Positions 14,646 to 34,625 of a stretch of DNA of 64,000 nt are shown one piece after another (the stretch's first letter is position 1; each line of letters starts with the position of its first letter). This DNA comes from an uncultured Dehalococcoidia bacterium. GTDB taxonomy: Bacteria > Chloroflexota > Dehalococcoidia > Lucifugimonadales > GCA-2712585. The notes beneath the pieces are model-generated. The model was given only the letters and a program-made list of their open reading frames with translations, did no database searches and was not told the origin of the DNA. The stretch spans positions 29,924 through 93,923 of the forward strand of contig CAYQLZ010000008.1 in NCBI GenBank assembly GCA_964418665.1. The letters are read 5' to 3'. A program made the translations under genes and the position numbers.

Positions 14646-14712
14646 CAAAACAAGATCCCGGAGTACGCCGAATCCCACCATTCGCCCAGCTCCCCACCCA
14701 TAACCGCACCCC

Positions 14713-14936
14713 CCGTAATGTTCGCCGCACGAGGCGCGGATATGTGCATCGAAGCTGAAAAAGTGGGACGGTGCGACTTTGCCTCGGGTTCTCCCTCCGC
14801 CTTCGCCAGCCTCCGCATAGTCCACGCTCAGGAAGTAGGCTACGTCGCAGCCTACCTCGCCTCCGACAAAGCCTGGGCCGTCACCGGTGAAGTCCTCGCC
14901 GCAGGCAGCAGGGTCGGCAACGCCATCTACTACTAA
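14713..14936 (+). pseudogene. orphan duplicate of the 3' end of the SDR gene (12771..12994)
   Basis: 224 nt collinear with no indels against 12771-12994, at a constant offset of 1942. The last ~110 nt look about 90% identical by eye. Both copies end in ...YLASDKAWAVTGEVLAAG...YY-TAA. Confidence 0.85.
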
Positions 14937-14991
14937 TCCATGCACACTCCCCCTCGGCACAATTCGCGTAGGGGCGATTCGCGAACCGTCC

Positions 14992-15543
14992 TCAGGGTTT
15001 GAGGCCCTCTACAACTGCCTCGGGATTCTCTCGGTCCAATTCCCACTTCAGCGGGTTTTCTACAATATATTCCCTTGCCTGACTCAACTCATTCTCGTCA
15101 CGGATAACCCGCTCGTAATAATTCCGCTGCCACAGACGCCGGGAGGGAGAACCGCAAGAAAGATTGATCCGCTTGGTGCTTACAGTCTTGAACGCGCCAA
15201 TCAGACGCCCCAGAGGCTTCCGGCAGTTTTTCGTAGGGGCGGTTCGCGAACCGCCCTGACTTGGGATTGTGTCTAACACGATGATGCCATGCAAATGATT
15301 CGGCATTACTACGTATTCGTCTAACGAGACGTGAGGATATCGTATCCCCAGCCATTCCCAATATGTTGCAACTATTCGCCCCTCATCGTTCAACTCCATT
15401 TTCCCATCTATAATTTCGCCGAAACGGAGACTTCGGTCCCTAACTACTACGGTTACGAAATACGCTCCCGCGCGGGTGTAGTCATATCCTCTCAATCTGA
15501 TAGACCTGCGCCGATGAATGTCGGGATTGTAGCGTTGGTTCAA
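14992..15543 (-). CDS. REP-associated tyrosine transposase (IS200/IS605 Y1 family, RAYT)
   Basis: RLRGYDYTRAGAYFVTVV, the HUH motif MPNHLHGIIVL, and the catalytic Tyr context LWQRNYYERVIRDE. Likely TTG start at 15543. The ORF-track extension to 15753 runs through a REP and is rejected. Confidence 0.8.
   Translation of the reverse strand: MNQRYNPDIHRRRSIRLRGYDYTRAGAYFVTVVVRDRSLRFGEIIDGKMELNDEGRIVATYWEWLGIRYPHVSLDEYVVMPNHLHGIIVLDTIPSQGGSRTAPTKNCRKPLGRLIGAFKTVSTKRINLSCGSPSRRLWQRNYYERVIRDENELSQAREYIVENPLKWELDRENPEAVVEGLKP
15233..15258. repeat. REP palindrome (family A) embedded inside the RAYT coding sequence
   Basis: GTAGGGGCGGTTCGCGAACCGCCCTG, read on the minus strand, encodes ...QGGSRTAPT... 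in the loop between the HUH and Tyr motifs. Confidence 0.8.
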
Positions 15544-15619
15544 TGGTGCATCTCTAGCAAAATATGTACCGTTCCACGTAGGGGCGGTTCGCGAACCGCC
15601 CCTACAAAGGACGACGACC

Positions 15620-15868
<249 letters not shown>

Positions 15869-15963
15869 TCAATTGTCCCACTACAAGCGCAATTATTGAA
15901 GCCCGGTTCGTATCCTCAATCCAACCACGATGGTTGCCTTTGAGTAGGTTTCGGTGCTGATGG

Positions 15964-16395
15964 TCAAGATACCCTCAGTACGATGTCAGTAACGATACTG
16001 ACCAACAAGCTTCCAATCGCTATCCCAACCGCCATTTTGGCTAGTCGGTGTGTCTGGCTTTGTCTTGCATCGTCGTTTCGTAGCTTGTGAAGTGCGCGTG
16101 CGCCCTGATTGGACATTCCTTCATGCACTTCAACGAAGAAGCACCGGTCTTCCCTATCTTGTGTAAGCACTTCCTTCAGGCGAGGCTTTAAATCTGGATC
16201 AATTCCTGTGCTCCAAATCCCCTCGGAGCATTCTGCTGCCCACGGTGCAGGCAAGCTGAGACTCTCACGCTCATCCTTGTTCCAAGATAACGGCCTCTTC
16301 TCAATATCAGCGGCAATCATGGCGAATTCAGATAGAAATTGACAATTCTTGCAGCAGTGTTTCATTGATGTCGTCCTAAGTGCCTCCCCCCTCAC
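15964..16395 (-). CDS. hypothetical tail-anchored membrane protein with N-terminal CCxxC
   Basis: 143-aa ORF. GTG at 16395 is preceded by GGAGGTGGGG (alternative ATG at 16365). It has MKHCCKNCQF near the N-terminus and a single C-terminal TM (MAVGIAIGSLLVSIVTDIVL). G+C is lower than in the flanks. Confidence 0.45.
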   Translation of the reverse strand: MRGEALRTTSMKHCCKNCQFLSEFAMIAADIEKRPLSWNKDERESLSLPAPWAAECSEGIWSTGIDPDLKPRLKEVLTQDREDRCFFVEVHEGMSNQGARALHKLRNDDARQSQTHRLAKMAVGIAIGSLLVSIVTDIVLRVS

Positions 16396-16408
16396 ATCCC
16401 CACCTCCC

Positions 16409-16512
16409 TCAACCGCAGTTCATCCCCCTCACCACATCCAAATTATCTCCCGTCCACAGAGTCCGGCTGGAAAAATCAGGAGCGGTCCTTTGCCTTCAAT
16501 CTCTATTTCTCC
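16409..16512 (-). pseudogene. frameshifted N-terminal fragment of a DNA methyltransferase (paralogue of 20642..22078)
   Basis: The minus strand reads EIEIEGKGP, then a frameshift, then DFSSRTLWTGDNLDVVRGMN, then a stop. The intact gene has TIEVEAVGEPNFASRTLWTGDNLDVLRGMN. The DPPF motif and everything after it are missing. Confidence 0.7.
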
Positions 16513-16548
16513 GCATATCCCCCGTCCCCAGCCTCCGGCTGGCACGAA

Positions 16549-16764
16549 TCAGACCGGCACGCTCACATGGTACACCACGTCTGCGTCCTTCGGCGCATCC
16601 ACCCCATCGTCCCTCAACGTTTCGAGATACAACCCTATGGCTTCTTTGACGTTTTACAGCGTCTCGGGAATCGACTCGCCCTGAGAGTAACAGCCGGGCA
16701 GCGCGGGCACCTGCACCCAGAAACCGCCTTCCTCCGCTTTGTTTATAGCCACTGAGTATTCCAT
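16549..16764 (-). pseudogene. HicB-family antitoxin-like gene interrupted by an in-frame TAA
   Basis: MEYSVAINKAEEGGFWVQVPALPGCYSQGESIPETL-TAA-NVKEAIGLYLETLRDDGVDAPKDADVVYHVSVPV. The stop is at 16654-16656. No hicA was seen next to it. Confidence 0.65.
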
Positions 16765-16983
16765 CTCATGTACTCATTGCAGGGGACTACGGGCAGCCGA
16801 AGCATCTCTGCAAATCGGCGTGATAGCAAGAATTTGATACATGGACAACACTGATGCAGGCAGCATAGCCGTTTCGTCACAAGATTCGCCAGCCACTCCC
16901 CCCACCGTCATTCCGGCCCCCTTTCTCCGTACTCCCGCGCTCAGTCAAAGTCCCCCTCCCCCTTCCCTTCCCTACCATCAACA

Positions 16984-18069
16984 ATGTACCCTCACAACAT
17001 GTGGCGCCTCACCGAACACCACCTGCAGTCCATCGCCACCGGCGCCGCCATCCTCGGCACCGGCGGCGGCGGTAACCCCTACGTCGGCATGCTCCGCGCC
17101 CGCGAGGCCCTTCGACGCTACAACCCCGTCGACGTGCTCACCCCCGAGGAACTGGGCGAAGACGCCCGCGTCGTCTGCGTCGGAGGCATCGGCGCCCCCA
17201 CCGTCGGCATCGAAAAGATGCGCGACATCCAGGCTTACCACGCCCTCCGCGCCATCGAAGACTTCGTCGGCGAAAAGGCAACCGCCCTCATCTCCAACGA
17301 AATGGGCGGCAGCAACTCCCTCGAACCCATCATCCCCGCCTCCATCGCCGGACTCCCCATCGTCGACGCCGACGCCATGGGCCGCGCATTCCCCGAACTC
17401 CAGATGAAGACCTTTTTCATCTATGGCGTCCCCTGGTATCCCCTCGCCCTCGCCGACGAAAAGGGCAATACCAGTATCTTCCCCAAGGCCGTCACCGCCA
17501 CCTGGATGGAGCGCATGGCCCGCGCCGTCACCATCCAGATGGGCTGCATCGCCTGCTACGCCCTCCACCCCATGTCCGCGGATGAAATCCGACGCACCGC
17601 CGTCCCCCACACCCTCTCTCTCGCCCTGAAATTGGGCAACGCCGTCAAGCAAGCCCAAATGAAGCACGAAGACCCCATCGAAGCCATCATGTCCGTATAC
17701 CCAGGCAAGGTCCTCTTCCAGGGCAAAATCGTCGACCTGGAACGTCGCACCACCACCGGTTTCGCCCGCGGCAAAGTCGTCATCGACGGCCTCGGCGAAT
17801 TCGCCCCCGGCCTCATGTCCATCGAGTTCCAGAACGAAAACCTTATCGCCTCCATCGACGGTCAGGTCGTCTGCCTCGTCCCTGACCTCATCTGCGTCGT
17901 CGACTCCGAACGCGGCGAACCCATCACCACCGAGCTCCTCCGCTACGGCTTCCGCGTCACCGTCCTCGGCTTCCCCGCCCACCCTCTGCTCAAGTCCCCG
18001 CAGGCCCTGGAAGTGGTCGGCCCCAGAGCCTTCGGCTACCCCCACCAATACGTCCCACTGGAGGTGTGA
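16984..18069 (+). CDS. DUF917-family protein (hydantoinase-associated)
   Basis: 361 aa. The N-terminal AAILGTGGGGNPY motif and the pairing with a hydantoinase/oxoprolinase gene are typical of DUF917. Confidence 0.75.
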   Translation: MYPHNMWRLTEHHLQSIATGAAILGTGGGGNPYVGMLRAREALRRYNPVDVLTPEELGEDARVVCVGGIGAPTVGIEKMRDIQAYHALRAIEDFVGEKATALISNEMGGSNSLEPIIPASIAGLPIVDADAMGRAFPELQMKTFFIYGVPWYPLALADEKGNTSIFPKAVTATWMERMARAVTIQMGCIACYALHPMSADEIRRTAVPHTLSLALKLGNAVKQAQMKHEDPIEAIMSVYPGKVLFQGKIVDLERRTTTGFARGKVVIDGLGEFAPGLMSIEFQNENLIASIDGQVVCLVPDLICVVDSERGEPITTELLRYGFRVTVLGFPAHPLLKSPQALEVVGPRAFGYPHQYVPLEV

Positions 18070-18113
18070 AATGAACCCAAACTCCCAATCGCCCCTCCGC
18101 CATTCCAATTCTC

Positions 18114-18155
18114 CTCTTCCCCCTCGATGGGGGAAGATTGAGATGGGGGTGAACA
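18114..18155. repeat. hairpin repeat, family B
   Basis: CTTCCCCCtcgatGGGGGAAGattgagatgggggtgaa. The same unit occurs at 12050, 23448, 27338, 28165 and 34192. Confidence 0.85.
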
Positions 18156-18180: not shown

Positions 18181-19728
18181 ATGCTGACCAGAATCGGCGT
18201 CGACGTCGGCGGCACAAACACCGACGCCGTCCTGATGCGCGGCGACGAACTCCTCGCCCAGGCGAAGGTACCCACCACCCCTGACGTCACCTCCGGCATT
18301 GAAGCGGCAATCGAAGCCGTCATGGCCGGTGCCGGCGACAGCATCCAGCCCTCGGCGGTTATGCTCGGCACCACCCACTTCACCAACGCCCTACTGGAGC
18401 GCCGTGGGCTCGCGAATACCGCCATCCTCCGACTCTGCCTCCCCGCCACAACTCTGTTGCCACCCCTCTGCGACTGGCCTGAACCCCTCAAGCGGTCCAT
18501 CGGCGGACTCAGCTACATGGTCCACGGCGGCCACGAGTTCGACGGACGCGAAATCTCGCCCCTGGATTCTGCGGAGATTCGCAACATCGTATCTCAGATG
18601 CGGTCCGAGGGAATCAAAGCCGTCGCCGTCAGCGGCGTCTTCTCCCCCATCGACCCTTCCCACGAGGAACGCGCCGCCGACGTTATCCGCGATGCAGCCC
18701 CGGACCTGCGCGTCACCCTCTCCCACCAGATAGGACGCGTGGGCATCCTCGAGCGCGAGAACGCCGCCGCCCTGAACGCCGCCCTTTCCGTCGCCGCCGA
18801 ACGCATCATCCCCCGCATCCGCGAGTCGTTAGACAGCCTCGGACTCAACGTCCCCCTCTACCTGAGCCAGAACGACGGCACCCTCATGGACGCCGAATTC
18901 GCCACCCGCTATCCCGTCTTCACCATCGCCTCCGGCCCCACCAACAGCATGCGCGGCGCCGCCTTCCTCTCCGGCGTCCGAAACGGCATCGTCATGGACA
19001 TCGGCGGCACCTCCACCGACGCTGGTGCGCTGGTCAACGGCTTCCCCCGCGAGGCGTCCGTCTCCGTGGAAATGACCGGCGTCCGCACCAACTTCCGCAT
19101 GCCCGACGTCATCAGCGTCGCCCTCGGCGGCGGCAGCATCGTCGAGACAGATCCCCTCCGCATCGGCCCCACCAGCGTCGGCCATCGCCTGACAACGAAA
19201 GCGCGGGTCTTCGGCGGACGAACCCTGACCGCCAGCGACATTGCGGTAGCAGGCGGTCTCGCCAGCATGGGCGACCCCGACGCTGTAAGGGACCTGGACA
19301 CAGGCATCGTCGACGAAGGTCTAACCCATATCCGAAGAATGCTGGAAGACGTCATGGACCGGGTGAAACTTACCCGCGGCGACGTCCCCCTCGTCTTGGT
19401 TGGTGGCGGCAGCGTCCTCGCCCCCACCCCGCTGACGGGCGCGTCGGAAATCCTACGCCCTCCCCACGCCGAGGTCGCCAACGCCATCGGAGCCGCCATA
19501 GCCCAGGTCGGCGGTCAGACCGAAAAAGTCTACTCCCTCGACCGTATGACCCGCGAAGAAGCCCTCGCCGACGCCCGCTCAACCGCCACCCAACAGGCCA
19601 TCGCCGCCGGCGCCAACCCCGACACCATTGAGATCGTCGAAGTCGAAGAAATCCCCCTCACCTACCTCCCCAGCAACGCCACCCGCATCCGCACCAAAGC
19701 CATCGGCAACCTGGGCATTGGAGAGTAG
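18181..19728 (+). CDS. hydantoinase/oxoprolinase family protein
   Basis: 515 aa. N-terminal IGVDVGGTNTDAV (ASKHA-type) and a second DIGGTSTD phosphate motif. Confidence 0.85.
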   Translation: MLTRIGVDVGGTNTDAVLMRGDELLAQAKVPTTPDVTSGIEAAIEAVMAGAGDSIQPSAVMLGTTHFTNALLERRGLANTAILRLCLPATTLLPPLCDWPEPLKRSIGGLSYMVHGGHEFDGREISPLDSAEIRNIVSQMRSEGIKAVAVSGVFSPIDPSHEERAADVIRDAAPDLRVTLSHQIGRVGILERENAAALNAALSVAAERIIPRIRESLDSLGLNVPLYLSQNDGTLMDAEFATRYPVFTIASGPTNSMRGAAFLSGVRNGIVMDIGGTSTDAGALVNGFPREASVSVEMTGVRTNFRMPDVISVALGGGSIVETDPLRIGPTSVGHRLTTKARVFGGRTLTASDIAVAGGLASMGDPDAVRDLDTGIVDEGLTHIRRMLEDVMDRVKLTRGDVPLVLVGGGSVLAPTPLTGASEILRPPHAEVANAIGAAIAQVGGQTEKVYSLDRMTREEALADARSTATQQAIAAGANPDTIEIVEVEEIPLTYLPSNATRIRTKAIGNLGIGE

Positions 19729-19733
19729 GTGGA

Positions 19734-20597
19734 CTAAAACGCATCTCTACCTATATTGGTTGACGGGTTTTGAACAACTTTGTTTACCCATTTTGCCTTT
19801 TTGTGGAAGTAAATCCAGTTTTCCGCTGCAGATACGATGTGTCGGTTAAACTCCTTGGTGAATCGCGAATTAGCAGATTGGAAATCGAGTTCTCCCGGAG
19901 TAAGTTTCCAATTCCCTACCAGTGCAATGTCGGAAGCCAGGGCAAACATAAATTCTGCATTTTCATGTTTTAGTCCAGCCGTCTTGGAAACAAAAACTGG
20001 ATGGTCACTAGTCAAAAATCCATCAGCTGTGTCGACAGTGAAAACTTGCCAGTTCATTCTCATAATGTGATCGAGCACACCTGGCAACCCCAAAACATGG
20101 CGCAGTGCAGGCTCTTTCGTTCGAAGTGGATCACCTTGCATGCTATCTTCAATTCGAAGCAAGCTCATATACATGGGGGCAATTGGCAGGTTCCATTTTC
20201 TAGCGGCTTCCTCGGGATCTTGCAGTGCTTCTCCAATATCCTGAGACAGTGAATCGGCCATCCTCATTCTCATACGCTCTGTTCTAGCAATCATTACAGT
20301 TACATATCGTGCTACTGCAAGTCTTCCAGCCATATCAATGCATTGTTTCTCACGCAACTTGTTGAGGTGGGATATTGCGGGTCCCTCGACCTTCTCGCTT
20401 AGGAGTTGCTCTAATTCGGGAGGAAAAAAGTCTTTCCTCTGACCTGCTCTCATGATGGGAAGCTCTTCCCAAGTGCCCTTGCGTATGTTGAATCGCCAAA
20501 TCAAGTCTGGATTGTGTTTTGTGGCGAAGTGTTTAAGGTACTCCTGTGGAGTAATGTGATTGTGAATTTTCATCGTCTTAATAATACGCGCTATCAT
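19734..20597 (-). CDS. DUF4238-family protein
   Basis: 287 aa, clearly AT-richer than its neighbours. N-terminal HNHITPQEYLKHF and the internal LTSDHPVF fit the DUF4238 signature (H-x-V-P-Q-x-Y-L..F, SDNP) as I recall it. Confidence 0.7.
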   Translation of the reverse strand: MIARIIKTMKIHNHITPQEYLKHFATKHNPDLIWRFNIRKGTWEELPIMRAGQRKDFFPPELEQLLSEKVEGPAISHLNKLREKQCIDMAGRLAVARYVTVMIARTERMRMRMADSLSQDIGEALQDPEEAARKWNLPIAPMYMSLLRIEDSMQGDPLRTKEPALRHVLGLPGVLDHIMRMNWQVFTVDTADGFLTSDHPVFVSKTAGLKHENAEFMFALASDIALVGNWKLTPGELDFQSANSRFTKEFNRHIVSAAENWIYFHKKAKWVNKVVQNPSTNIGRDAF

Positions 20598-20641
20598 TGC
20601 TGTTCTTGCGTATGACCTTTAGGTTGCCCTTCCTAACTTCC

Positions 20642-22078
20642 TCACATCCCCATCTCCCGCAGCCGCGCCACTAGGTACTCCTGCGGCCTATCCCCCTTCA
20701 GCGAATTGCACGCCCCGCACAGAAGCTGAAGGTTGTCCAGGTGGTCCGTACCACCCCTGCTCTGCGGCACAATATGGTCGATGGTGAAGTTGCGGAATGG
20801 GAACATCACCCTGCAACCCGCGCACAGCCCTTCCTGCTTGCCGAACAACTCGTGTTTCCTCTTGCGATAAGGAATGGGAACGTCAATATCCGTCCGCCTG
20901 GGTATGTCCGTCCGTGACGTCACGTAGCCCGCATGAAACAGGCTCCCCATCGACTGGCGTAGCCGGTCGTTCACCTGCCTGATGGCGTTGGGCGAAATGT
21001 CGATACCCACCCACTGACGCTCCAGCCTGTCGGCGGCGACGCACGTGGTAGCGCAGCCGCAGAAGGGGTCAAGCACCATGTCCCCTTCGTTCGACGAAGC
21101 CTTGATGATCCGCTCCATCAAGGCCAACGGCTTCTGCGTGGGATATCCCGTCCGCTCACTTCCAGCAGCAATCGGTATGTCGTTCCACGTATCGCTAACG
21201 GGAATGCCTGGTTGTTCGTCGAGATACCGTTTGAACCGTGGGACGCCCTTCCCACCGCGAGGAACTACAATCAAGCCCTTCCGGTCCGCTTCTTCCATCC
21301 GTTCCCTTGTCCATCTCCAAACCCTTGTCACACCCTTGAACTCATACGTCAAATTCGGCCTGTCGGGATTTGGATTAAGCAGACTGGTCAACTGATACCT
21401 GCGCCCTGTCTCTTCTTCAATCTGCCGATATTGCTCATGCGCACGGGGATTCTCTACAAATATCGAGTTCCAAGTTGTCTTCCCATCACTCCCGTAAGCA
21501 AGAATCACATCATGATTGGAAGCAAAGCGGGTAAAGGCCAAGCCTTTGGGGTGGGAACGCCTCCATATGACCTCATTCCGAAAATTTCTTGCGCCAAATA
21601 TGCTATCCATCAATAGCTTATGATAATGACTGGCCGTTGGGTCGCAGTGCAGGTAGATTGACCCTGTAGGCTTCAACACTCGCTGCATCTCCAGCAACCG
21701 AACTGCCATCATGCAGAGATACGATTGCGTACTCTTGCCGTGGGTAGTTCTTGCCGTCTCAATCACTCTGTACATGGCGGGATGCACATCGGCAACCAGG
21801 CCCATCCATGCTACGTCCAGGTCCGACAGCGTCCACGTGTCCTTGAAAGCGGCGCCCGCAGCCTTGCTCCCGATAGGCGCAGCGTAGTTGCGGTTGGAGT
21901 TGAAAGGTGGGTCCAGGTAGATGAGATCGGCGCAGTCGCTGTTCATCCCCCGCAGCACATCCAGATTGTCCCCAGTCCACAACGTCCTGCTGGCAAAATT
22001 CGGTTCACCCACGGCCTCAACCTCTATCGTGGTCTTGCCAACACTTGTGTCATCGCCCCCAATGGACGAGCAACGCAA
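20642..22078 (-). CDS. DNA methyltransferase (N6-A/N4-C, beta-class order) fused to a C-terminal HNH nuclease domain
   Basis: Motif IV LIYLDPPFNS is near the N-terminus and motif I MVLDPFCGCATTCVAA near residue 340. The C-terminal ~70 aa read CAGC...FTIDHIVPQSRGGTDHLDNLQLLCGACNSLKGDR (HNH). The start codon is uncertain. Confidence 0.85.
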   Translation of the reverse strand: MRCSSIGGDDTSVGKTTIEVEAVGEPNFASRTLWTGDNLDVLRGMNSDCADLIYLDPPFNSNRNYAAPIGSKAAGAAFKDTWTLSDLDVAWMGLVADVHPAMYRVIETARTTHGKSTQSYLCMMAVRLLEMQRVLKPTGSIYLHCDPTASHYHKLLMDSIFGARNFRNEVIWRRSHPKGLAFTRFASNHDVILAYGSDGKTTWNSIFVENPRAHEQYRQIEEETGRRYQLTSLLNPNPDRPNLTYEFKGVTRVWRWTRERMEEADRKGLIVVPRGGKGVPRFKRYLDEQPGIPVSDTWNDIPIAAGSERTGYPTQKPLALMERIIKASSNEGDMVLDPFCGCATTCVAADRLERQWVGIDISPNAIRQVNDRLRQSMGSLFHAGYVTSRTDIPRRTDIDVPIPYRKRKHELFGKQEGLCAGCRVMFPFRNFTIDHIVPQSRGGTDHLDNLQLLCGACNSLKGDRPQEYLVARLREMGM

Positions 22079-22100
22079 ATGCCAATAGAATCATTGTGCC

Positions 22101-22129
22101 AGTGTACCCTAAGCGAGTATCATCAACAA
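22101..22129 (-). promoter_or_regulatory. candidate promoter of the MTase-HNH/DUF4238 pair
   Basis: On the minus strand: TTGTTG (22129-22124), 17-nt spacer, TACACT (22106-22101). Confidence 0.3.
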
Positions 22130-22148
22130 GAGGAGTACCCCCTCCCCC

Positions 22149-23420
22149 CTAAACCCCAAAAACCTCCCGAAACCGCTCGTCACTCTCAAACGGCCCCACC
22201 ACCGCCAGGTTCAGCCGCCTCTCGTCCACCAGCTCCCGCGCCACCCGGTTCACGTCGTCCAGCGTCACACCCTCGATGGCCGAAACCACCTCGTCTACCG
22301 TCGCCACCCGGTTAAGCAGCAGTTCCTGCCCCCCCTGCCACATCGCCACGCTGCGAGTGTCCTCCATCCGCAGCATGATCCGACCCTTCGAATACTCCCG
22401 CGCCTTCTCCAACTCCCGCTCCGAAAACCCCTCCCGCATGGCCGAAAGCTGCCCCATTATCGCCTCTAACGACTTCTGACTGCGTGAAGGCTCCGACCCG
22501 CAGTACACCACCAGCGACCCGCAGTCCCGGTACTGGCTCAGCGAGCTGTGAACGTCGTACGCCAACCCCTGCTTCTCCCGCACCTCCAGGAACAGCCGGC
22601 TGCTCATCCCCTCGCCCAGCATGATGTTCACCAGGCTCTGCGCGTACCTGTCCGGGTGGTCCAGCGCCGCCGCCGGCATCCCCACGCAGATGTGCGCCTG
22701 CTCCGCCTCCTTGTATTCCAGCCGTAATGCGGCATCCTCCTGGTCAACCGACACCGGCGACCACAACATCGTGTCGCGTGGCTTCCAGCCCTCCGTAGCG
22801 CCGACTACCTCCTCCAGCACCTCTTCTTGGGAGACGCCCCCGGCCACGGAAATCACCACGTTGGAAGGCCCGTACTGCCGCTGCATCAACGCCACCAGGT
22901 CGTCGCGGGTGATGGCGTCCACCGACTCAGGCGTGCCCCCCACGTCCCGTCCCATCGGCTGGTCGGGCCACAGCATCTCGTCGATGAGCAGGTCCACCCG
23001 GTGGGTGGGATAGTCGTTGCTCATCCGAAGCTCTTCCTGGATGACCTGCCGCTCCTTCTCCATCTCCTCCTGGTCAAGAAGCGGATTCAACACCATGTCC
23101 AACAGCACCGCCAGCGCCCGCCTGAAATGGGGCTTCGCCACCTTGCACCAGTAGATCGTGATCTCCCTGTCCGTGCTGGCGTTCATCACGCCTCCCACGC
23201 CCTCGATGGCCTCGCTGATGTCCTGCGCCTTCGGCCAGTTCTTGGTCCCCTTGAAAAGCAGGTGCTCCAGGAAATGGGTGGAACCCGCCGTTTCGTCGGG
23301 CTCGTAGCGGGACCCCACGCCCACAAACAGGGCCAGGGTAACGGAATAGGTGTGAGGCATGGTGGAGGTGAGGACACGCAGTCCGTTGTCCAGTGTTGTA
23401 CTGTTGTGGTCTAGACTCAT
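22149..23420 (-). CDS. M16-family (pitrilysin-like) zinc peptidase
   Basis: 423 aa with the inverted zinc motif HFLEHLLFKGT. Confidence 0.88.
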   Translation of the reverse strand: MSLDHNSTTLDNGLRVLTSTMPHTYSVTLALFVGVGSRYEPDETAGSTHFLEHLLFKGTKNWPKAQDISEAIEGVGGVMNASTDREITIYWCKVAKPHFRRALAVLLDMVLNPLLDQEEMEKERQVIQEELRMSNDYPTHRVDLLIDEMLWPDQPMGRDVGGTPESVDAITRDDLVALMQRQYGPSNVVISVAGGVSQEEVLEEVVGATEGWKPRDTMLWSPVSVDQEDAALRLEYKEAEQAHICVGMPAAALDHPDRYAQSLVNIMLGEGMSSRLFLEVREKQGLAYDVHSSLSQYRDCGSLVVYCGSEPSRSQKSLEAIMGQLSAMREGFSERELEKAREYSKGRIMLRMEDTRSVAMWQGGQELLLNRVATVDEVVSAIEGVTLDDVNRVARELVDERRLNLAVVGPFESDERFREVFGV

Positions 23421-23447: not shown

Positions 23448-23490
23448 CTCTTCCCCCTTGATGGGGGAAGATTAAGATGGGGGTGATTCC
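23448..23490. repeat. hairpin repeat, family B
   Basis: CTTCCCCCttgatGGGGGAAGattaagatgggggtgattcc. Confidence 0.85.
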
Positions 23491-27208: not shown

Positions 27209-27221
27209 TCCCCCACCCCTC

Positions 27222-27520
27222 TTGCCCCTCTCCCGTCCTGGGAGAGGGTTGGGTGAGGGTCTCCCCAATCCTAATTCCTGCGAAGGCAGGAACCCACCCG
27301 CCCCCACAGTCATTCTGGCGAAAGCCGGGGCCAATCTTTCCCTTTCCCCTCGACGGGGGAAGGTTAGGATGGGGGTGATTCGGGTGGTCGCGGGTTGCGA
27401 CCTGCAGTTACACAAAACTTGCCTAAGGCAGGAACCCCCCAGAATCCCCCAACCACCCCCAACCCCGAACGCATCACCCTCCCCAACCGTCATTTAGGCG
27501 AAAGCCGGAATCTAGTCCCC
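27222..27520. repeat. mosaic cluster of hairpin repeats (families C, F, E, B, G, F, E)
   Basis: CTCTCCCgtcctGGGAGAGggttgggtgagggt (27222-27265). TTCCTGCgaagGCAGGAA (27271-27295). gtcattctggcgaaagccgg (27309). CCCCtcgacGGGGgaaggttaggatgggggtgat (27338-27390). gcagttacacaaaac (27405). gcctaaggcaggaaccc (27418). gtcatttaggcgaaagccggaatc (27489-27520). Confidence 0.85.
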
Positions 27521-27526
27521 CTCCCC

Positions 27527-28036
27527 TCAGTCAATCTCCCACGGGATGAACTTCTTCCACTCGTCCAGAATCGTCCGACCGTGCAGCACATAATAGGGGC
27601 TGGGATACGGCGCTTTCGGCGCCTTCAACAGCTTCATCCCCGCCTGGTACGGCGTCCTACCAGCCTTTCGGTGATTGCACGGAATGCACGCGCTCACAAT
27701 ATTCTCCCACGTCTGCTTGCCCCCCAGCCGGCGCGGCCTCACGTGGTCCATCGTCAACTCCAGGTTGCGCAGGCCGCAATACTGGCACGTGTGCCGGTCC
27801 CTCAACAGCACTTCCTTCTTTGAGAGCTTCCGCTTTACGAATGGCCGCTTCACCATGTACACAAGCCGGATGATGCAGGGCAGGTCGAAAACCTGCGTCG
27901 CCGACCTCACCTGCCCCCTCCCGTTCTCCAGCAATTCCGCCTTTCCTCGGAAGATCAGCAGCAACGCGCGACGAGCATTGCAGACGTTAATCGGCTCGTA
28001 ATTCAGGTTCAGAACTAGGACTGGGGAACTCAGCAT
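27527..28036 (-). CDS. HNH endonuclease family protein
   Basis: 169 aa. CQYCG...LTMDHVRPRRLGGKQTWENIVSACIPCNHRKAGRTP. Confidence 0.85.
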   Translation of the reverse strand: MLSSPVLVLNLNYEPINVCNARRALLLIFRGKAELLENGRGQVRSATQVFDLPCIIRLVYMVKRPFVKRKLSKKEVLLRDRHTCQYCGLRNLELTMDHVRPRRLGGKQTWENIVSACIPCNHRKAGRTPYQAGMKLLKAPKAPYPSPYYVLHGRTILDEWKKFIPWEID

Positions 28037-34191: not shown

Positions 34192-34625
34192 CTCTTCCCC
34201 CTCGACGGGGGAAGATTGAGCCTGTCCTTAGCCTGTCGAAGGGATGGGGGTGATTGGGGTGGTGCGAGGAAGGGAGCCTGTAGTTACGCAAAGGTCCCCA
34301 TCCTGGGACAGGATTGAGCCTGCCCTGAGCTTGTCGAAGGGGTGAGGATCATCTGGGTGGCTATGAGTCTGAGGGGTGCGTTATGCAAGGGATTCCACCC
34401 CCAGAGAGGCCTCCCGATCTTACCCTCTCCCGTCCTGGGAGGGGGTTGGGTGAGGGTATCCTCCTCCCTCTGACGGACACCCTTGCATAACCGGCATTCC
34501 GGCGGAAGCCGGAATCCAGTCCCCTATTCCCTCCTCTCCCGTCCTGGGAGAGGATTGAGGTGAGGGTGGCTCCCCCTGCTCCCCTCTACGGGAAAGAGTG
34601 AGCCTGTCCTGAGTCTTTCGAGAAG
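34192..34625. repeat. largest mosaic cluster of hairpin repeats (families B, G, B', G', C, E, C, B')
   Basis: CTTCCCCCtcgacGGGGGAAGattgagcctgtccttagcctgtcgaagggatgggggtgat (34192-34262). gtagttacgcaaaggtcccc. gattgagcctgccctgagcttgtcgaagggg. TACCCTCtcccgtcctgggagggggttgggtGAGGGTA (34421-34462). ATTCCGGCggaaGCCGGAAT (34496-34515). ctctcccgtcctgggagaggattgaggtgagggt (34528-34570). gagtgagcctgtcctgagtctttcgag. Confidence 0.85.

Follow-up and report, generated by a model that had tools for sequence, protein, structure and literature searches.

A single DUF4238 gene taken from a P2-like hotspot of E. coli gives 'strong resistance against T7' (Rousset et al. 2022, PMC9122126), and the Type IIC enzymes, which carry nuclease and methyltransferase (MTase) in one polypeptide, are described as an N-terminal PD-(D/E)XK nuclease plus a gamma-class MTase, with the alpha-class BtgZI as the exception (PMC4081073). 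Here we report on a 64,000-nucleotide stretch of DNA (the window) from a Chloroflexota lineage (Dehalococcoidia-like), in which about 2.4 kilobases (kb) of low guanine-plus-cytosine (G+C) content lie between a hydantoinase gene and an M16 peptidase gene. This segment holds two intact open reading frames (ORFs) on the minus strand (within 19,734-22,078), one for an MTase fused to an HNH nuclease domain (MTase-HNH) and one for a DUF4238 protein, with a spacer of 44 nucleotides (nt). From a comparison of about 135 related loci overall (denoted by L numbers), we find that the segment is probably a small, fast-turning hotspot of accessory genes that carries two autonomous single-gene modules, neighbours by history and not by function.

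Hotspots for defence and toxin-antitoxin genes have been described in P2/P4 elements and in Pseudomonas islands (PMC12629846), and the window site resembles them in its fixed core borders, its low-G+C cargo and the rapid swapping of modules among close relatives. Unlike them, it shows neither an integrase nor an att site nor a phage backbone. Variable hotspots with independent defence and addiction genes are a known phenomenon, of which this locus is an ordinary case, and the genes in it add new members to known families. For uncultured Chloroflexota, it provides a natural example of such a hotspot, where modules of methyltransferase, toxin-antitoxin and DUF4238 type replace one another within a fixed frame of core genes. 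The case also illustrates how weakly adjacency in one genome supports a 'system', since the tight pair dissolved once it was set against about 10 syntenic relatives and about 120 distant loci.

An earlier note on the window had proposed a candidate two-gene defence system with MTase-HNH and DUF4238 as a fixed pair, and had named beforehand a lack of conserved linkage in other genomes as the outcome that would speak against it. No conserved linkage was found, and the fixed pairing is refuted. The domain assignments of that note are correct, and its suggestion of a role in defence is reasonable. A word-indexed search gave 24 close DUF4238 relatives of 50-100% identity, and scans with an alignment of close relatives gave 39 loci from the GTDB representative genomes and 80 from metagenomes, for the most part at 21-33% identity; the genome and metagenome loci outside the closest relatives are L001-L039 and L042-L121. 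With MTase-HNH as the tblastn query, we found no adjoining copy in the DUF4238 loci outside the closest relatives of the window, except that L035 and L092 contain short, unrelated pieces of MTase or HNH and L001 a C-terminal MTase fragment of 131 amino acids (aa). ORFs were also called in all loci and the two neighbours on each side were clustered (324 proteins); the largest clusters comprised 4 loci, all of them closely related contigs, and in a Pfam scan of the 135 immediate neighbours no family occurred in more than two. Since there was neither an adjoining MTase-HNH nor a recurrent neighbour cluster or Pfam family, DUF4238 has no conserved partner, and no obligate partner emerged from the neighbour tests and the hotspot comparison together. 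The two genes co-occur only in the closest relatives of the window (DUF4238 at least 71% identical), and there the association decays in both directions. More distant relatives of DUF4238 (50-60% identical; L124, L130 and L001) are located at other sites, and that of L130 adjoins Uma2.

At the syntenic site, the relatives have common core borders, M16 peptidase on one side and hydantoinase A, S-Me-THD and adh_short on the other, at 79-88% nucleotide identity among relatives. Between these borders, the window carries MTase-HNH and DUF4238, and L122 carries MTase-HNH (93% aa identity), a 31-aa ORF, DUF433 and DUF4238. L040 and L041 hold a pair of NTase_sub_bind and NTP_transf_2 genes (HepT/MNT-like), 36 aa left over from the HNH C-terminus (83% identical) and DUF4238, with the junction as in the window. 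The cargo of L123 is DUF433, DUF4238 and a pair of a 92-aa ORF with PIN, and that of L129 is a HicB-like gene, DUF4238 and a pair of a 93-aa ORF with PIN. L125 carries an 81-aa ORF, MTase-HNH (92%), a 168-aa ORF, DUF433 and a pair of a 94-aa ORF with PIN, without DUF4238. The G+C of all of this cargo is below that of the borders.

Within the clade, MTase-HNH has been lost twice independently with DUF4238 kept, and the converse is seen in L125. The nearest DUF4238 relative of the window, in L128 (96% aa identity), is intact behind the same 44-nt spacer, and the MTase-HNH gene there has an in-frame stop and a C422Y change at a zinc ligand. In L040, MTase-HNH is gone but for 36 codons; DUF4238 is intact, with a ratio of nonsynonymous to synonymous divergence (dN/dS) of 0.275. 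Hence, DUF4238 is retained in L040 and L128 without a working MTase-HNH, and MTase-HNH is retained in L125 without DUF4238. We also considered DUF4238 as the restriction partner of the MTase in a classical Type II pair and rejected it, as DUF4238 survives both deletion and pseudogenisation of the MTase and has no nuclease-fold match.

The tight adjacency in the window is itself a product of rearrangement, because the ORF143 and DUF433 segment that intervenes between the two genes in L122 sits elsewhere in the window (Table 1). By blastn this segment is 76-78% identical to L122 708-1409, 75% to L125 7171-7408 and 77% to L123 277-485. In L122 it lies between MTase-HNH and DUF4238, in L125 directly after MTase-HNH, and in the window it directly follows a truncated MTase 5' end, across the hydantoinase operon from the two genes. 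This truncated copy upholds the degraded MTase paralogue that the earlier note had placed near 16.4 kb: in tblastn, the 21 aa encoded at positions 16418-16480 (minus strand) match MTase residues 26-46 at 86% identity, and at the DNA level the fragment aligns with the 5' ends of the MTase genes in the window, L125 and L128. Direct adjacency of MTase-HNH and DUF4238 probably arose by loss or translocation of the intervening ORF143 and DUF433 cargo.

From the MTase side, six contexts were retrieved (L125, L126, L127, L131, L134 and L135), and DUF4238 is present in none of the six. In L126, L127 and L134, MTase-HNH stands alone amid metabolic or housekeeping genes, and in L125 it occupies the syntenic site of a relative. 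A copy 68% identical to that of the window lies in a prophage-like element in L135 (1-11395; CI/S24 repressor, helix-turn-helix (HTH) gene, integrase, serine recombinase and HicB), and a copy 48% identical adjoins a tape-measure gene and an IS1595 transposase in L131 (1-8226), an IMG/VR contig. The best 120 matches to the protein are 65-96% identical, all but one have both N6_N4_Mtase and HNH, and most measure about 456 aa. A query of 179 residues (motif I, linker and HNH) run against 1.84 billion representatives at 50% identity returned 459 representatives of such clusters at E<=1e-30, and most of the best 150 span the whole query; one named representative of the family is from Cytophagales, and public records label its members merely "DNA methyltransferase". 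By these searches, the MTase-HNH family is large and strongly conserved, and its members normally occur alone.

Window 19659-21157 is 95.6% identical to L128 5441-6939, within flanks that are 80-86% identical. This block holds the 3' end of the hydantoinase gene, DUF4238, the spacer and the half of the MTase with HNH and motif I; the central region of the MTase has no nucleotide similarity to L128, and its 5' end is 81% identical. Because a block of such identity lies within more divergent flanks and the central MTase region is dissimilar, the alignment indicates a recent recombinational exchange and a swap of the recognition region between the lineages of the window and L128. On account of the same block, we propose that the cargo would turn over by homologous recombination and deletion.

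The block also bears on a rival explanation, in which the genes form a true two-gene defence system of a narrow clade, with MTase-HNH marking self and/or cutting and DUF4238 as a dependent, co-transcribed effector or sensor. Exchange of HNH and DUF4238 as one unit would suit such a system, as would the identical junction kept in L040 and L128, the adjacency or its remnants in 4 of 9 close-clade contexts, and the position of both genes on the same strand across a 44-nt gap; no terminator-like or promoter-like pattern was found in the minus strand of this spacer, and one operon is plausible on these grounds. Even so, we consider this system improbable. There is no linkage beyond the clade, DUF4238 stays intact and constrained after deletion of MTase-HNH in L040 and intact after its inactivation in L128, L125 keeps MTase-HNH without DUF4238, a DUF433 gene sits between both genes in L122, G+C and dN/dS differ between the genes, and the E. 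coli DUF4238 that was tested works as a single gene (PMC9122126).

Several points nevertheless weigh against reading the segment as two autonomous modules. Co-transcription is probable from the shared strand, the short gap and the lack of a detectable terminator. Adjacency to MTase-HNH, present or past, marks 4 of the 9 close-clade DUF4238 contexts, and the two genes can travel together, because the exchanged block runs from the HNH half through DUF4238. Loss of the MTase would also be tolerable if another MTase of the same specificity sat elsewhere in those genomes, and a functional coupling of both genes that is specific to this clade is conceivable. The MTase-centred sample comprises six contexts only, and the very low dN/dS of MTase-HNH and its frequent housekeeping neighbourhoods would also fit a housekeeping or regulatory MTase. 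Finally, AlphaFold predicts the HNH region of the fusion poorly (predicted local distance difference test (pLDDT) 38-49), and the model gives no domain geometry. The data show physical linkage inside a small clade and no functional dependence, in keeping with two modules that are neighbours by history.

The two cargo genes also differ from each other in composition. G+C and G+C at third codon positions (GC3) are 0.448 and 0.44 for DUF4238 and 0.562 and 0.68 for MTase-HNH, compared with 0.662 and 0.82 for hydantoinase A and 0.635 and 0.86 for M16 peptidase. Both cargo genes fall below both flanking core genes, in line with the base-composition switch of the earlier note, whose description of a minus-strand two-gene module in a low-G+C stretch also agrees with the ORF, Pfam and composition data; the 11-point difference in G+C between the two cargo genes themselves was absent from it. 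The DUF4238 stop lies 5 nt away from the hydantoinase stop.

Synonymous divergence (dS) separates the genes as well. Against L125, the dS of MTase-HNH is 1.67, about twice the 0.77 of the flanking core genes (window 20645-22012 vs L125 5001-6377); the alleles seem older than the genome split, or laterally exchanged, because this dS exceeds that of the flanks. The dS of DUF4238 against L040 is 0.60, matching the 0.45-0.62 of the flanks. Acquisition of the island in a single recent event was rejected, as the genes differ in G+C and the dS of DUF4238 matches that of the flanks and the dS of the MTase does not.

Selection on the two genes also decides how to take the idea that both are decaying, non-functional remnants of a horizontally acquired island. 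Low G+C, the truncated second MTase copy at 16.4 kb and the pseudogenisation or deletion of MTase-HNH in relatives would be expected of such remnants. However, neither window ORF is truncated or lacks a conserved residue, and dN/dS is 0.03 for MTase-HNH (vs L125 and L122; neighbouring core genes 0.10-0.18) and 0.14-0.28 for DUF4238, which is clear purifying selection in both, so we regard decay as very improbable.

The MTase-HNH protein is best described by its motifs. Residue numbers refer to the mechanical ORF of 478 aa (20642..22078, minus strand, TTG start); the true start is probably GTG 22012, which gives 456 aa, because a GAGG Shine-Dalgarno sequence precedes it and homologues measure 451-464 aa. 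The DPPF of motif IV (residues 56-59, in the string YLDPPFNSN) comes first, ahead of the recognition region, and the DPFCGCAT of motif I (residues 337-344, in DPFCGCATT), which binds S-adenosylmethionine (AdoMet), comes late. This is the order of a beta-class MTase; both motifs are invariant or nearly so across 23 homologues, and DPPF suggests N6-adenine specificity.

The HNH string of the window protein is DHIVPQSRGGTDHLDNLQLLCGACNSLKG. It has the zinc ligands of a CxxC...CxxC pattern, D434-H435 as general base, N449 and N458, and C419, C422, D434, H435, N449, C454, C457, N458 and K461 are invariant in 23 of 23 sequences at 66-92% identity. Judged by this alignment, the HNH nuclease site is complete, with catalytic and zinc residues all present. 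The beta-class amino-MTase with DPPF first and FCGCATT late and the complete C-terminal HNH motif, both claimed in the earlier note, are thus confirmed by Pfam, motif positions and the alignment, and an HNH lacking catalytic residues, which that note had held out as counter-evidence, did not occur among the 23 sequences.

Among described enzymes, the sequence matches of the MTase in the PDB are CcrM, DpnA, M.MboIIA, M.RsrI and EcoP15I Mod (E 1e-15 to 5e-8), and the PADLOC models MTase_II and MTase_III match it too. These beta-class orphan or Type II/III MTases have the same order of motif IV, target-recognition domain and motif I; unlike the window protein, no matched PDB chain has an HNH. No Res-like ORF lies near the window gene or beside its homologues, as would be expected of a Type III restriction-modification (R-M) system, and among the window ORFs no Res or REase partner gene adjoins MTase-HNH. 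Literature searches for MTase-HNH fusions returned no paper describing one, and the co-mentions of N6_N4_Mtase and HNH concerned neighbouring genes, not fusions.

In comparison with its homologues, the MTase-HNH protein has intact domains, invariant catalytic residues, a swapped recognition region and a gene under very strong purifying selection. Nuclease activity, its coupling to methylation status and a defensive role are predicted. The central recognition region would bind a short DNA motif, sites of the resident genome would be methylated, and the tethered HNH would nick or cut unmethylated sites on incoming DNA, so that the protein would be a one-polypeptide R-M enzyme with Type IIC logic.

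A rival reading takes MTase-HNH as an orphan MTase, regulatory or derived from phage for anti-restriction, whose HNH tail serves mobility or homing, repair nicking or DNA binding, with DUF4238 as an unrelated neighbour. Orphan MTases from phages of Streptomyces and Mycobacterium, which are without HNH, share about 47-50% identity with the MTase domain, and the MTase-HNH family occurs in prophage and viral contigs and among housekeeping genes. CcrM-type beta-class MTases use a C-terminal non-catalytic DNA-binding domain. A dN/dS below that of neighbouring core genes and an allele dS above that of the flanks, which suggests lateral exchange, would also suit an orphan MTase. In contrast, the invariance of the catalytic and zinc residues speaks for a functional nuclease site, the hypervariable recognition region was swapped between near-identical alleles as in the diversification of R-M specificity, and the gene sits in low-G+C hotspots with toxin-antitoxin modules. 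We regard the orphan MTase as possible but doubtful.

Like MmeI, Eco57I, BpuSI and BtgZI of Types IIC and IIG (PMC4081073), MTase-HNH has nuclease and MTase in one polypeptide, presumably with a shared recognition module, and its gene can stand alone without a separate MTase, as that of MmeI does. Unlike them, it is a beta-class MTase with a C-terminal HNH, which departs from the described architecture, and its cleavage is only predicted; relative to Type IIC as set out in PMC4081073, this would be a variant architecture. The most interesting lead is that MTase-HNH may be a single-chain R-M enzyme of this unusual design. If so, it would extend the known architectures of combined restriction enzymes, and the family could supply compact, specificity-swappable nicking or cutting enzymes.

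A wider claim would be that MTase-HNH is a large uncharacterised class of single-chain R-M enzymes (beta-class MTase, swappable central recognition region and C-terminal HNH), partner-free and widespread in Chloroflexota and found also in Bacteroidota and prophages, with DUF4238 as a second, independent defence gene without a solved fold homologue. We advance this tentatively, as a possibility that falls short of being probable. What keeps its interest is the large MTase-HNH family together with a DUF4238 family that is structurally an orphan.

A small stand-alone HNH ORF lies at about 27656-27844 (minus strand) of the window, near a gene for DNA polymerase III delta-prime, and is 31% identical to the HNH of the fusion over 67 aa. 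The matching region in L129 (1-292; 87% nt identity) is an HNH gene beside a delta-prime-like gene.

The second gene encodes a DUF4238 protein, as the earlier note had it, with a full-length Pfam match of 96.9 bits (cutoff 27) in which residues 13-267 span positions 2-280 of the 281 in the profile (PF14022). The true start is probably ATG 20573, which gives 279 aa, because homologues begin MKIHNH. Conserved motifs are an N-terminal H-x-H..YL.HF, TSDxPV and many invariant Arg residues, and dN/dS is that of purifying selection. The earlier note's mention of a stand-alone anti-phage DUF4238 from an E. coli P2 hotspot is correct (PMC9122126). Compared with that protein (E. coli TA007, pFR101; sequence from Table S2 of Rousset et al., PMC9122126), the window protein gave an hhalign probability of 96.6% (E 5.5e-10, 239 columns) and a BLASTP match at 2e-10 with 20% identity. 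The two are thus remote homologues, aligned over almost the entire protein.

Like Rst_DUF4238 of pFR101, the window gene is a full-length PF14022 member, colinear over about 240-290 residues, and the motifs H-x-H..Q/P..YLK.F, ..RT.., a W in the central strand and F(L/I)TSD(N/H)PV are common to both proteins. Both are stand-alone genes without a conserved partner in a variable hotspot. Unlike Rst_DUF4238, to which its identity is only 20%, the window gene lies in the chromosome of a Chloroflexota metagenome-assembled genome (MAG), flanked by housekeeping genes and not in a P2/P4 element, and it is known from sequence alone, with no match to a PADLOC model or to phage records and IMG/VR. Acting by itself against phage is the best-supported function that we infer for DUF4238, which would then be an autonomous effector. 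The comparison extends the DUF4238 anti-phage family to a distant phylum, with a predicted fold that has no counterpart in the PDB.

The AlphaFold model of DUF4238 has a pLDDT of 77.8 and a predicted template modelling score (pTM) of 0.74. Foldseek found no fold match for it in the PDB (best E 0.9), and in BFVD the sole meaningful match (E 2.4e-7) was to an uncharacterised protein from Smp131, a P2-like phage of Stenotrophomonas; this match supports the family identity and gives no function. A sequence search of the PDB with the DUF4238 profile gave a chance match only (E 0.34), a PADLOC-DB 2.0.0 scan a noise-level Cas1 match only (E 0.0025), NCBIfam and PHROGs nothing, and tblastn against 50,697 phage records with an IMG/VR scan no match. 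The loop DPLRTKEP (residues 155-169, window about 20091-20135) is almost invariant in a clade of 19 sequences, with P157, R159 and T160 invariant, and the model has its lowest confidence there (pLDDT below 50); the loop may have a functional or binding role.

Two further DUF4238 contexts lie among other genes of note. In L001 (3275-5921), from a Dehalococcoidia MAG, an Mrr_cat nuclease gene, a PLD-like gene and the 131-aa piece of what is another N6_N4 MTase immediately precede a DUF4238 of 51% identity, a context that resembles a defence island with a decayed R-M system. In L124 (2529-9421), a DUF4238 of 60% identity comes after modules of PhdYeFM/PIN, PIN and HigB and after a gene of 409 aa that matches HTH weakly; a phage capsid gene follows just downstream, and the site may be the edge of a prophage.

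Table 1. Features of the hotspot and of the associated fragments in the window
Feature	Position	Strand	Details
ORF143 + DUF433 segment	15620..16395	-	ORF143 15964-16395, without Pfam match; DUF433 15620-15838, E 7.6e-21
Truncated second MTase-HNH copy, 5' end	16410..16505	-	ribosome-binding region and about 28 codons
Hydantoinase A	18181..19728	+	core gene, hotspot border; synteny in L040, L122, L123, L125
DUF4238 gene	19734..20597	-	287 aa; Pfam DUF4238 residues 13-267, E 1.9e-27
Intergenic spacer, 44 nt	20598..20641	-	same junction kept in L040 and L128
MTase-HNH fusion gene	20642..22012	-	456 aa from GTG 22012 (probable start); mechanical ORF reaches TTG 22078
HNH nuclease domain	20669..20824	-	residues 419-470; Pfam HNH E 2e-12, HNH_5 E 2.4e-13; HNH_4 also matches
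N6_N4_Mtase domain	20969..21928	-	residues 51-370; Pfam E 1.3e-43
Variable central region, putative target-recognition domain	21179..21556	-	about residues 175-300; indel-rich in the alignment; lowest G+C of the gene, 0.517
M16 peptidase	22149..23420	-	core gene, opposite hotspot border; synteny in L040, L125, L129

An Rfam scan of the whole window matched no RNA family. On the far side of the hydantoinase operon, adh_short appears disrupted or degraded within 14705-16984, where fragments only match (14705-14991). In the relatives, adh_short follows directly after S-Me-THD; in the window, the interval is filled by an ORF like a REP-associated tyrosine transposase (RAYT), DUF433, ORF143 and the MTase 5' fragment. 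A perfect palindrome of 28 nt, GTAGGGGCGGTTCGCGAACCGCCCCTAC, and a near-copy lie at 15578-15605 and 15233-15260, where none would be expected by chance. They are in or beside an ORF of 253 aa (14992-15753, minus strand) with a weak match to IS200/Y1 transposases. Weaker copies lie near 18113-18153, 23450-23486, 27221-27265 and 34423-34567, and related short matches recur in intergenic spots of the window and its relatives. Together, the palindrome and the 253-aa ORF look like an element of the repetitive extragenic palindromic (REP) kind with a RAYT-type transposase.

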